DNA of 64,000 nt from Escherichia coli O157:H7 (GTDB lineage: Bacteria > Pseudomonadota > Gammaproteobacteria > Enterobacterales > Enterobacteriaceae). The stretch lies in NCBI RefSeq assembly GCF_013167455.1, contig NZ_CP038328.1, one strand, 5' to 3'. Of the stretch, positions 53,210 through 61,002 are shown piece after piece. A model generated the notes under the pieces. That model was given only the letters and a program-made list of their open reading frames with translations. It was not told the DNA's origin and searched no databases. The translations under genes were made by a program, and so were the position numbers. The stretch's first letter is position 1; every line of letters starts with the position of its first letter.

Positions 53210-53839
53210 ATGATTCGGGTAGTGCTGGTGGATGACCATGTTGTGGTGCGCTCTGGCTTCGCACAATTACTCTCTCTGGAAGACGATCTGGAGGTCATTG
53301 GTCAGTACAGTAGTGCCGCGCAGGCATGGTCGGCATTAATCCGTGATGACGTCAATGTTGCCGTCATTGATATTGCCATGCCGGACGAAAACGGCCTCAG
53401 TTTGCTTAAGCGCCTGCGTGCACAAAAACCGCAATTTCGCGCCATTATTCTTAGCATTTATGACGCGCCAACCTTTGTGCAAAGCGCGCTGGATGCCGGT
53501 GCCAGCGGGTATTTAACCAAACGCTGTGGGCCGGAAGAGTTAGTACAGGCGGTGCGCTCGGTCGGGCTGGGCGGGCATTATCTCTGTGCCGATGCGATTC
53601 GGGCTTTACGCGGCGGCGGGCAACCCGCCCAGGCGCTGGAAATTCTCACCCCACGAGAACGTGAAGTGTTTGAGTTACTGGTCAAAGGAGACAGCGTTAA
53701 AGAGATCGCCTTTAAACTCGAACTCAGTCATAAAACGGTACATGTGCATCGCGCCAATGTGCTGGGAAAACTGAACTGCCATAGCACCATTGAACTGGTA
53801 CATTTTGCGCTCGACCACCATCTGCTGGCGGGGCATTAA
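53210..53839 (+). CDS. NarL/FixJ-family response regulator (UhpA-like)
   Basis: 209 aa; receiver domain (VVLVDDH...D) plus C-terminal LuxR-type HTH. Confidence 0.85.
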   Translation: MIRVVLVDDHVVVRSGFAQLLSLEDDLEVIGQYSSAAQAWSALIRDDVNVAVIDIAMPDENGLSLLKRLRAQKPQFRAIILSIYDAPTFVQSALDAGASGYLTKRCGPEELVQAVRSVGLGGHYLCADAIRALRGGGQPAQALEILTPREREVFELLVKGDSVKEIAFKLELSHKTVHVHRANVLGKLNCHSTIELVHFALDHHLLAGH

Positions 53840-55380
53840 TGTCGCGCAATCTTCGTCATTGGGTGATTTTGCTGTTTATTGTGCTAGCCTGGGGAACCGG
53901 CTGGCTGATGCTGTGGACGCTCAGCTTTTATCTGACCAATAACGGTCAACAGGCGGTGTTGTTTCTCCCGCAGGGAGTTTATCTCGCCCTTGTTATTTTG
54001 CTCTCTCGCCGCTACTGGCCTGCGTTGGTGCTCCCCCCTTTGCTGATGATGTTCTGGCTCCATAGTGAACAGCTATTGAACGGTTATCTCATGCTGGCAA
54101 CGCCGGTTATTAGCCTGTTTCCTGCCCTCCTTGCGCAAAACTTCTGGCACCGTTTTCCACTTTACTGGCAGCGTCTGACGTTGCTGTTAGCCACTGTCAC
54201 GGCAGCTTCATTGTTGAATACCGCCCTGCTCTCCCCTTTTATGTCAGGCCCAATAATGCTACCGGGTTTGACCTCATTTACCGGCGGCGTATTACTGACG
54301 CCGTTTGTCTATCTTATCTTTGAGTTTCTGCGCCAGCAGCATCGCTACCAGCTCCTGGGACTCGATACGCATAATCCCCCCTTGCGTACCTCTTTAATCA
54401 TCTGGTGTAGCCTGTTTTTTATTATTGGTATCGGCACTCAGATGGTGCTGTCACCTGAAATTGAACGTCTGCTGTTGATCGTGGTCTTTTTGCCCAATGT
54501 GGTGATGGCGTGGAAATTTGGCTGGCAAGGTGGCGTACTCTCCGGGCTTTTGGGCAGCATGATGATCACCATCGCCCGCCAGATTGGCGTGGGCTTTAGT
54601 AACCTGGTGGAGCTGGAGATTTTCCTCGCGACCCAGGCCTTGCTGGGAATTGGCCTGGGCATTGCCATCAGTCGCCAGCAACATCTGGCGCTAAACCTGC
54701 ACCATTACCGACAACGGCTGGAGGCCGAGCTGGCAGCGCGGCGGGCATTGGCGGAAAAGCTGATCCACACCGAGGAGGACACGCGAAAAAACCTGGCGCG
54801 AGAGCTGCACGACGAAATCGGTCAGAACATCACCGCCATTCAGATCCAGTCGCAACTGGTGAAGCGGGCGCGTGATCCGGCGCAAATTCAATCCGCAGCC
54901 AGCCAAATCAATGAGCTCGCCCGCCGCATTCATCTCTCCACCCGCCAATTGCTGCGCCAGTTGCGGCCTCCCGCGCTTGATGAACTGACATTTCGCGAAG
55001 CGTTGCTGCATCTGATTAATGAATTTGCCTTTAGTGAACGCGGCATTCATTGCCAGTTTGCCTATCAACTGAACTCCACACCAGAAAACGAAACGGTGCG
55101 CTTTACCTTGTATCGGTTATTGCAGGAGTTGCTCAATAACATCTGTAAACACGCCGAAGCCAGCGAAGTGACGATTATCCTGCGCCAGCAGGGAGAGGTA
55201 TTGCATCTGGAAGTCAGCGACAACGGTGTGGGGATCGCCAGCGGGAAAATGGCTGGATTTGGCATTCAGGGGATGCGTGAGCGCGTCAGCGCCCTGGGCG
55301 GCGACTTAACGCTCGAAAAACAGCACGGCACGCGGGTAATTGTTAACTTGCCCACATTTTTGCAACAAATCGCCGGATAA
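53839..55380 (+). CDS. sensor histidine kinase (UhpB-like: multi-TM sensing domain plus HisKA_3/HATPase)
   Basis: 513 aa; about 8 TM helices then H-box ELHDEIGQNITAI and ATPase motifs; 1-nt overlap (TAATG) with the regulator gene. Confidence 0.85.
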   Translation: MSRNLRHWVILLFIVLAWGTGWLMLWTLSFYLTNNGQQAVLFLPQGVYLALVILLSRRYWPALVLPPLLMMFWLHSEQLLNGYLMLATPVISLFPALLAQNFWHRFPLYWQRLTLLLATVTAASLLNTALLSPFMSGPIMLPGLTSFTGGVLLTPFVYLIFEFLRQQHRYQLLGLDTHNPPLRTSLIIWCSLFFIIGIGTQMVLSPEIERLLLIVVFLPNVVMAWKFGWQGGVLSGLLGSMMITIARQIGVGFSNLVELEIFLATQALLGIGLGIAISRQQHLALNLHHYRQRLEAELAARRALAEKLIHTEEDTRKNLARELHDEIGQNITAIQIQSQLVKRARDPAQIQSAASQINELARRIHLSTRQLLRQLRPPALDELTFREALLHLINEFAFSERGIHCQFAYQLNSTPENETVRFTLYRLLQELLNNICKHAEASEVTIILRQQGEVLHLEVSDNGVGIASGKMAGFGIQGMRERVSALGGDLTLEKQHGTRVIVNLPTFLQQIAG

Positions 55381-59944: not shown

Positions 59945-61002
59945 TGGAGCGCACTATGAGTCAGAAAAATTTTGTGGAACTGCGCAACGTCACTAAACGA
60001 TTCGGCAGTAATACGGTTATCGACAATATCAATCTCACCATCCCACAAGGGCAAATGGTGACGCTGCTTGGCCCTTCCGGCTGCGGCAAAACCACCATTT
60101 TGCGTCTGGTTGCCGGGCTGGAAAAACCGAGTGAAGGGCAAATCTTTATTGATGGCGAAGATGTCACGCATCGTTCCATTCAGCAGCGCGATATCTGCAT
60201 GGTGTTTCAGTCATACGCTCTGTTCCCGCATATGTCGCTGGGCGAAAACGTCGGCTACGGGTTAAAGATGCTCGGCGTGTCGCGTAGCGAAGTAAAGCAG
60301 CGGGTGAAAGAGGCGCTGGCAATGGTGGATCTGGAAGGGTTCGAGGACCGCTATGTCGACCAGATTTCCGGTGGTCAGCAACAGCGCGTGGCGCTGGCCC
60401 GCGCGTTGATCCTCAAACCAAAGGTGCTGCTGTTTGATGAGCCGTTAAGTAACCTCGATGCCAACCTGCGCCGCAGCATGCGCGATAAGATCCGCGAGCT
60501 GCAAAAGCAGTTTAATATCACGTCGCTCTACGTGACTCACGATCAAAGTGAGGCCTTCGCGGTTTCCGACACTGTGCTGGTGATGAATAAAGGTCACATC
60601 ATGCAGATTGGCTCACCGCAGGATCTCTATCGTCAGCCAGCCTCCCGCTTTATGGCAAGTTTTATGGGCGACGCCAACCTGTTCCCGGCGAACTTTAGCG
60701 AAGAGTATGTCGATATCTACGGTTATCGCCTGCCGCGCGCGGCGCATTTCCCGGTGCAAGGTAGCGGCACCGTCGGCGTTCGCCCGGAAGCCATCACCTT
60801 AAGCAATCACGGCGAAGAGAGTCAGCGTTGTGTTATTCGCCATGTCGCCTACATGGGGCCGCAGTACGAAGTGACCGTAGAGTGGCATGGACAGGAGATT
60901 TTATTACAAGTAAACGCCACCCGTTTACAGCCCGATATTGGTGAGCACTATTACCTCGAAATCCATCCTTACGGGATGTTTGTTTTAGCGGATGCGGCAT
61001 AA
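59944..61002 (+). CDS. afuC: ABC transporter ATP-binding protein (AfuC/FbpC family)
   Basis: 352 aa; Walker [10 protein letters not shown], signature [15 protein letters not shown], Walker [10 protein letters not shown]-terminal regulatory (TOBE-like) domain. Confidence 0.8.

Follow-up and report, generated by a model that had tools for sequence, protein, structure and literature searches.

Six genes of Escherichia coli O157:H7, located at positions 53210-61002 on the plus strand of a 64,000-nucleotide stretch of contig NZ_CP038328.1 (the whole stretch is termed the window hereafter), make up the published O-island 20 (OI-20) of this serotype. Here we suggest, with a probability of about 0.7, that OI-20 is a self-contained, horizontally mobile module, in which a second UhpABC-type sensor is joined to the AfuABC importer and the z0461-afuABC genes would be activated by hexose phosphate in the manner of UhpA. 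The gene identities, the island borders, the conservation of the cassette and its conserved cis-elements are directly established, and the mechanism is what we infer from them. The locus itself is already known, since afuABC of enterohaemorrhagic E. coli (EHEC) has been placed on OI-20, next to the FusKR two-component system (PMC4546632); the earlier note on this DNA, which was made from the letters alone, was right to call it not novel.

The interval is filled by six same-strand open reading frames (ORFs), which encode, in order, a response regulator, a MASE1 histidine kinase, a UhpC-type major facilitator superfamily (MFS) protein, AfuA, AfuB and AfuC (Table 1). The ORFs and their Pfam domains agree with the gene content and the positions given previously. 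In the literature, Z0463 is fusR, Z0462 is fusK and Z0461 is termed a 'fucose transporter' (PMC6199705), and FusK has been described as a MASE1 kinase with eight transmembrane segments and FusR as a LuxR-type regulator (PMC11644481). The regulator and the kinase of the cassette are FusR and FusK, as matched by the OI-20 position and the domain description and not by accession; the public protein records attach neither name to the kinase or the regulator. The earlier note had the homology right, but missed the FusKR/Z0461 names and the published fucose signal.

Sensor and importer proteins

The NCBIfam models of UhpA, UhpB and UhpC rank first for the first three proteins, respectively, and only the UhpC-like protein passes the curated cut-off. 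That is, Z0461, which is 53% identical to UhpC and 29% identical to UhpT, scores 587.7 versus a cut-off of 564 (NF008661), while the regulator, 49% identical to K-12 UhpA, scores 194.4 versus 258 (NF007685) and the kinase, 35% identical to UhpB, scores 379.4 versus 408 (NF008649). Judged by this score, the kinase is a UhpB paralogue and not an equivalog. The recognition helix KTVHVHRAN is identical in FusR and UhpA. These relationships bear out the description of the first three genes as a UhpABC-like three-component sensor. In addition, 5,415 of the 5,426 complete genomes of E. coli, O157:H7 among them, carry the canonical uhpABCT genes, and therefore the island carries a second, paralogous system.

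Z0461 keeps the equivalents of UhpT R46, K82 and R275, as well as the aligned GlpT arginines, and lacks the UhpT-specific D388/K391 pair, as UhpC does. Such residues would be more in keeping with a phosphate ester as the ligand than with a neutral sugar.

The binding protein is a sugar-phosphate AfuA and not a ferric FbpA, as indicated by sequence comparison. It is 76% identical to the glucose 6-phosphate (G6P)-bound AfuA of Actinobacillus pleuropneumoniae (4R72-75; E = 1.5e-169) and matches another AfuA-type structure, 8X1A, with E = 1.7e-173, whereas the E-values to ferric FbpA/HitA/SfuA are only about 1e-8 to 1e-12. Clustering with true FbpA proteins, which had been set beforehand as the outcome contrary to an AfuABC-type importer, is not what is seen, with about 1e-170 to the AfuA structures versus about 1e-11 to FbpA/HitA. 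The ligand residues of the A. pleuropneumoniae protein (ApAfuA) have been defined by mutagenesis, namely the sugar-coordinating H205, D206 and E229 and the phosphate-contacting S37 and T150 (PMC4546632). All five are kept in the EHEC precursor, where S62, T174, H229, D230 and E253 correspond to ApAfuA S37, T150, H205, D206 and E229, respectively. AfuABC is an importer of G6P, fructose 6-phosphate (F6P) and sedoheptulose 7-phosphate (S7P), not an iron transporter (Sit et al. 2015, PMC4546632). It should be noted that binding and transport of G6P, F6P and S7P are known for the orthologues of A. pleuropneumoniae and Citrobacter rodentium, not for the EHEC copy, and that the C. rodentium AfuA orthologue binds G6P and rescues a uhpT mutant (PMC4546632). 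The similarity scores, the ligand residues and the operon layout all fit the AfuABC-type sugar-phosphate importer that had been proposed for this locus.

Conserved cis-elements

The elements that point to regulated expression of the importer were found by phylogenetic footprinting, in which 75 distinct sequences of the gap that separates the kinase gene from the uhpC-like gene were aligned, together with 76 regions upstream of fusR from different Enterobacterales. This gap measures about 72-96 nt in most loci, and the distance from the end of the uhpC-like gene to afuA usually ranges from -4 to about 60 nt. Four elements are conserved in the gap alignment, that is, an inverted repeat at the kinase stop codon, the TCTCATCC element, a TAnAGT hexamer and GGAG-ATG.

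The inverted repeat lies at most 25 nt from the kinase stop codon in 76 of the 78 loci, compared with a background of about one match per 13.5 kb. The more distant genera Buttiauxella, Erwinia and Rahnella have a perfect repeat, CCAGGAATAATTCCTGG or CTAGGAATAATTCCTAG, and the Vibrio copy reads CTAGGAAATATTCCTAG. The copy in OI-20 is the only site in the window with no more than one mismatch to the degenerate box pattern CYAGGAANNNNTCYTRG. A regular-expression search of 52800-61200 for uhpT-style boxes (CCAGG-N3-8-CCTGG and variants) returned none, and the box emerged only by footprinting.

The arrangement resembles the K-12 uhpT promoter, which has a similar 7-3-7 box, CTAAGAAATTTTCCAGG, with a TCTCA element between the box and TACAAT; TCTCAGGCC stands there at the equivalent distance from the box. 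The distance from the box to the -10 hexamer is 42 nt in the island (TATAGT), 42 nt in Vibrio (TAGGAT) and 43 nt at K-12 uhpT (TACAAT). No recognisable -35 hexamer is found in the candidate z0461 promoter. The regulator-type box with its uhpT-like spacing is placed before the uhpC-like gene, and not between that gene and the transporter.

In about 50 species the sequence of both half-sites is invariant, imperfect repeats included, which would agree more with a site bound by a protein than with an RNA hairpin. The reading of the 17-bp repeat as an RNA hairpin was set aside, since its arms pair poorly in the Escherichia, Citrobacter and Klebsiella clade and are nevertheless invariant there. With conserved promoter-like elements both upstream of the regulator gene and in the gap that follows the kinase gene, the earlier suggestion of one transcription unit is probably wrong, and the cassette probably comprises two, fusR-fusK and z0461-afuABC.

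Table 1. Features of O-island 20 and their positions in the window
Feature	Position	Strand	Basis
O-island 20, accessory segment between tauA and frmR, 8,024 bp	53046..61069	.	comparison with empty-site strain
Conserved motif TTTTGTTAC-N-CATA ahead of the regulator gene	53116..53136	+	76-region alignment
Putative sigma-70-like promoter of fusR-fusK (TTGCCA, 16 nt, CATGAT)	53152..53179	+	promoter scan; hexamers conserved across genera
fusR (Z0463), response regulator, UhpA paralogue	53210..53839	+	Pfam REC and GerE/LuxR helix-turn-helix
fusK (Z0462), MASE1 histidine kinase, UhpB paralogue	53839..55380	+	Pfam MASE1, HisKA_3, HATPase_c
17-bp imperfect inverted repeat CCAGGAAAAAGTCTTAG, proposed FusR (UhpA-type) box	55381..55397	+	footprinting
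Invariant TCTCATCC element between box and -10	55413..55420	+	at least 90% conserved in 75 distinct sequences
-10-like hexamer TATAGT, proposed z0461-afuABC promoter	55440..55445	+	conserved as TAnAGT
z0461, UhpC-type MFS protein, putative sugar-phosphate receptor	55465..56769	+	Pfam MFS_1; NCBIfam UhpC
afuA, periplasmic sugar-phosphate binding protein	56766..57797	+	Pfam periplasmic solute-binding domains
afuB, fused double permease, 692 aa	57866..59944	+	two BPD_transp_1 stretches (Pfam); RefSeq start
afuC, ABC (ATP-binding cassette) ATPase	59956..61002	+	Pfam ABC_tran and TOBE_2; RefSeq start
Hairpin after afuC, 8-bp stem, without T-tract	61016..61043	+	read from sequence

Distribution of the cassette

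In a scan with one genome per species, 348 relatives of AfuA were found, the best 80 of which were examined. These 80 all belong to Enterobacterales, in about 30 genera, and the six genes occur in the same order in every Enterobacterales locus among them with enough flanking sequence. A Vibrio locus has the same six-gene layout. Across the loci, conservation is highest for AfuA (85-98%) and lowest for the kinase (55-88%), and the nearest relatives are those of Citrobacter. Within the species, the island is present in 518 of the 5,426 complete E. coli genomes, among them O145, O111:H8 and isolates of horse, baboon, pig and dog origin. As a unit of sensor plus importer, the cassette is ancient and widespread and not an O157-specific acquisition. 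Consequently, of the earlier wording 'strain-specific accessory content', the word accessory stands, and strain-specific understates a spread that takes in 518 of the 5,426 genomes of E. coli, some 80 species of Enterobacterales and Vibrio. Reviews, as secondary sources, describe FusKR as restricted to O157:H7 and possibly acquired from E. faecalis; neither confinement to O157:H7 nor an Enterococcus origin fits the distribution in E. coli and in some 80 species of Enterobacterales.

At another chromosomal site, E. coli Eco889 carries a cassette that is 94% identical and lies directly downstream of a tyrosine-type integrase near ulaE/ulaF, which suggests that the Eco889 cassette is carried on an integrative element. 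In Gallibacterium anatis (Pasteurellaceae), afuABC occurs without adjoining sensor genes and is followed by a gene for a class B acid phosphatase.

Proposed mechanism

Two transcription units with UhpA-style activation of z0461-afuABC are proposed because the promoter elements are conserved, the spacing is uhpT-like and the recognition helix is identical. The fusR-fusK genes would be transcribed from the conserved sigma-70-like promoter at 53152-53179, and z0461-afuA-afuB-afuC would be a second unit, inducible and expressed from the 84-nt gap between fusK and z0461. External hexose phosphate bound by Z0461 would switch FusK to the kinase state, and the phosphorylated regulator would bind the 17-bp repeat at 55381-55397, probably together with the downstream TCTCATCC. 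The regulator would then activate a promoter with no -35 hexamer, in just the way that UhpA acts at uhpT. The outcome would be more receptor, that is, positive feedback, and more of the high-affinity importer.

A stronger statement is also possible, to which we give somewhat less than an even chance. That is, FusKR and Z0461 may be primarily a three-component sensor of hexose phosphate whose ancestral target is the z0461-afuABC promoter, and control of the enterocyte-effacement locus (LEE) and of the fuc genes in EHEC may be a lineage-specific add-on or an indirect effect, possibly via cross-talk with UhpA. UhpA and the island regulator have identical recognition helices, the uhpT promoter and the candidate target promoter of the island match in box-to-(-10) geometry, and it is plausible for this reason that the canonical Uhp system and the island regulate each other.

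If true, the stronger statement revises a widely cited model of gut sensing by EHEC. The proposed control of the z0461-afuABC promoter, if confirmed, links two literatures that have treated neighbouring genes separately and prompts a re-examination of the signal read by FusK. In the C. rodentium model, AfuABC contributes to competition in the gut and to transmission between hosts, and anti-virulence designs, the latest from 2026, make use of FusKR as a target.

Evidence to the contrary and alternative explanations

Several points weigh against activation of z0461-afuABC by hexose phosphate. The regulator and the kinase fall below the UhpA and UhpB equivalog cut-offs of NCBIfam. The generic scans for promoters and terminators yield no enrichment relative to shuffled sequence and carry no weight alone. 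No clear terminator is seen between fusK and z0461, so that read-through from the upstream promoter is possible. According to secondary accounts of the published work, FusK autophosphorylates on L-fucose and FusR represses z0461, the fuc genes and ler (PMC6199705, PMC11644481, PMC4810492), and the repression of z0461 has the opposite sign to the inferred UhpA-like activation. Moreover, the FusR site reported in the ler promoter has no CCAGG half-site (PMC11644481). The hexose-phosphate-induced activation of z0461-afuABC, which would follow from the conserved elements, sits awkwardly with the published fucose/repressor model.

The most serious alternative is that model itself, in which FusK senses L-fucose directly, FusR represses ler, z0461 and the fuc genes, Z0461 aids fucose import and AfuABC is an unlinked neighbour. 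We regard this account, taken as a whole, as unlikely. The fact that UhpB-type MASE1 kinases have no periplasmic domain and depend on UhpC is difficult to reconcile with direct sensing of fucose by FusK. Passing the UhpC cut-off and keeping the phosphate-binding arginines would be unexpected of Z0461 if it were a carrier of a neutral sugar, and the conserved box has the geometry of the uhpT promoter. Against an unlinked AfuABC stand the genomes, where the six genes are inseparable in about 80 Enterobacterales species and in Vibrio, mostly without LEE. The fucose account nevertheless has experimental reports on its side (PMC11644481, PMC4810492, PMC6199705, PMC12976359), which, as summarised there, include the loss of fucose-dependent LEE repression in a fusKR deletion. 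The literature searched contained no paper that tests G6P on FusKR/Z0461 or links FusKR/Z0461 to the regulation of afuABC. The two accounts are not mutually exclusive, and both may be partly true.

An improbable alternative is a single constitutive six-gene operon, transcribed from a promoter upstream of the regulator gene, with the conservation of the gap reflecting signals for RNA processing or stability. All six genes are co-directional, stop and start codons overlap at two or three junctions and no convincing intrinsic terminator follows the kinase gene, as such an operon would have it. However, RNA signals would not readily account for half-sites that do not vary even in loci whose repeat is unable to fold into a hairpin, nor for a conserved -10 at a fixed 42 nt from the conserved inverted repeat, as at uhpT. 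Furthermore, z0461 and fusK/fusR are not always regulated together in bovine gut contents (PMC6199705).

A ferric-iron ABC importer, as the NCBIfam NF008513 and RefSeq names of the ATPase and the JGI names of AfuA relatives would have it, is rejected as very improbable on the AfuA structure matches and the kept sugar- and phosphate-contacting residues, the iron annotation being wrong and refuted for the orthologues (PMC4546632).

The public names lag behind the 2015 reassignment. RefSeq and NCBIfam retain the ferric 'fbpC' for afuC, and relatives of AfuA appear in the JGI annotation as 'iron(III) transport system substrate-binding protein'. The legacy fbpC name comes with a score of 699 versus a cut-off of 496 for the 'ferric ABC transporter ATP-binding protein' model NF008513.

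Gene junctions

The stop/start overlaps between successive genes, which had been read as a sign of one transcription unit, are found in part. As read from the sequence, the regulator and kinase genes overlap by 1 nt at TAATG, and z0461 and afuA overlap at ATGA. TAATG is present at the afuB/afuC junction as well, where a possible ATG for afuC at 59944 overlaps the afuB stop codon, but the RefSeq start of afuC is the second ATG, at 59956, with GGAG 6 nt upstream of it, and the true arrangement is probably an 11-nt gap and not an overlap. The remaining two junctions, on which the earlier note is silent, are gaps. That between the kinase gene and z0461 is 84 nt, or 72 nt with the second possible in-frame ATG of z0461 at 55453. 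That between afuA and afuB is 68 nt with the RefSeq start of afuB; the ORF list starts afuB further upstream, with a TTG at 57815.

The afuA-afuB gap contains a GC-rich hairpin that resembles a repetitive extragenic palindromic (REP) element (57817..57846, plus strand), with a centroid fold of -22 kcal/mol. Its folding is no better than that of shuffled sequence (z = -0.84), and the only Rfam match in the region is the REP-derived naRNA4 at 57774-57847 on the minus strand, far below threshold. By analogy with malE-malF, the hairpin might stabilise the afuA message. The hairpin after afuC was not picked up by the terminator scan and is a possible end of the operon.

Island borders and chromosomal setting

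Many chromosomes of E. coli O157:H7 carry the region with 100% nucleotide identity. The island is flanked by tauA (51945-52907, minus strand) and frmR (61162-61437, plus strand). Its borders were obtained by comparison with the empty-site strain AR_0086, in which tauA and frmR are directly adjacent; this strain aligns with the window as far as 53045 and then from 61070 onwards, and has a 75-nt REP-containing filler in place of the 8,024-bp island. The K-12 interval between tauA and frmR holds yaiS, ykiC, yaiP, yaiX::IS2 and yaiO, in agreement with the earlier statement that the cassette replaces yaiS/yaiP/yaiO and insertion sequence (IS) content of K-12. On the frmR side, homology to K-12 picks up again at 61070. 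On the tauA side, it stops at 52945, that is, 38 nt upstream of the tauA start codon, and consequently the promoter region of tauA differs between K-12 and O157:H7. The DNA beyond 52945 is common to O157:H7 and the empty-site strains, unlike K-12. The tauA-frmR junction has at least three states, namely empty with the 75-nt filler (AR_0086), yaiS-yaiO (K-12) and OI-20 (O157:H7), with the frmR-side breakpoint common to all three. Just outside the island, a long near-perfect inverted repeat, TATACTATAGGGGGGTATGC...GCATACCCCCCTATAGTATA, occupies 61085-61137 in the promoter region of frmR and is presumably the FrmR operator.

Base composition gives no signal of foreign origin, since the GC content of the island is 0.54 and that of the window 0.51. 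Elsewhere in the window, the 500 bp upstream of hemB (48000-48499) have a GC content of 0.35, compared with the average of 0.51.

A remnant of afu genes is found in the CP4-6 region of K-12, where an afuB fragment truncated by IS1 is accompanied by an intact afuC; the remnant is 86% identical to the island copy. On account of this identity, the K-12 remnant represents a distinct afu lineage. An afuB'-afuC remnant of the K-12 type is also present on 32 E. coli plasmids. Plasmid carriage of the island itself was considered and rejected, because all the plasmid matches are this remnant, with 18% query coverage and 86% identity.

Comparison with known systems

The UhpABC-UhpT system of E. coli is similar to the island in its order of regulator, kinase and receptor, in the 1-nt overlap of the regulator and kinase genes, and in the domain sets of the proteins. 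The recognition helix of the regulator is identical, and the candidate target promoter of the island matches that of Uhp in its 17-bp box, its TCTCA element and the spacing of its -10 hexamer. However, the island proteins are only paralogous to those of Uhp, and the effector is an ATP-driven ABC importer instead of the UhpT antiporter, which exchanges inorganic phosphate. In addition, the candidate regulated promoter of the island is upstream of the uhpC-like gene, whereas that of Uhp is downstream of uhpC, so that the receptor would be co-induced in the island.

The AfuABC systems of A. pleuropneumoniae and C. rodentium, like that of the island, consist of a binding protein, a fused double permease and an ATPase with a TOBE domain. 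The AfuABC of Pasteurellaceae differs from the island in having no adjoining sensor genes, and otherwise there is no difference of substance.

The FusKR system of EHEC (Pacheco et al. 2012, via PMC11644481, PMC4810492 and PMC6199705) is encoded by the same two genes as the regulator and kinase of the island, judged by their OI-20 position beside afuABC/z0461 and by their domains. Its published signal is fucose and its published output the repression of ler, z0461 and fuc, while homology, synteny and promoter layout suggest otherwise.

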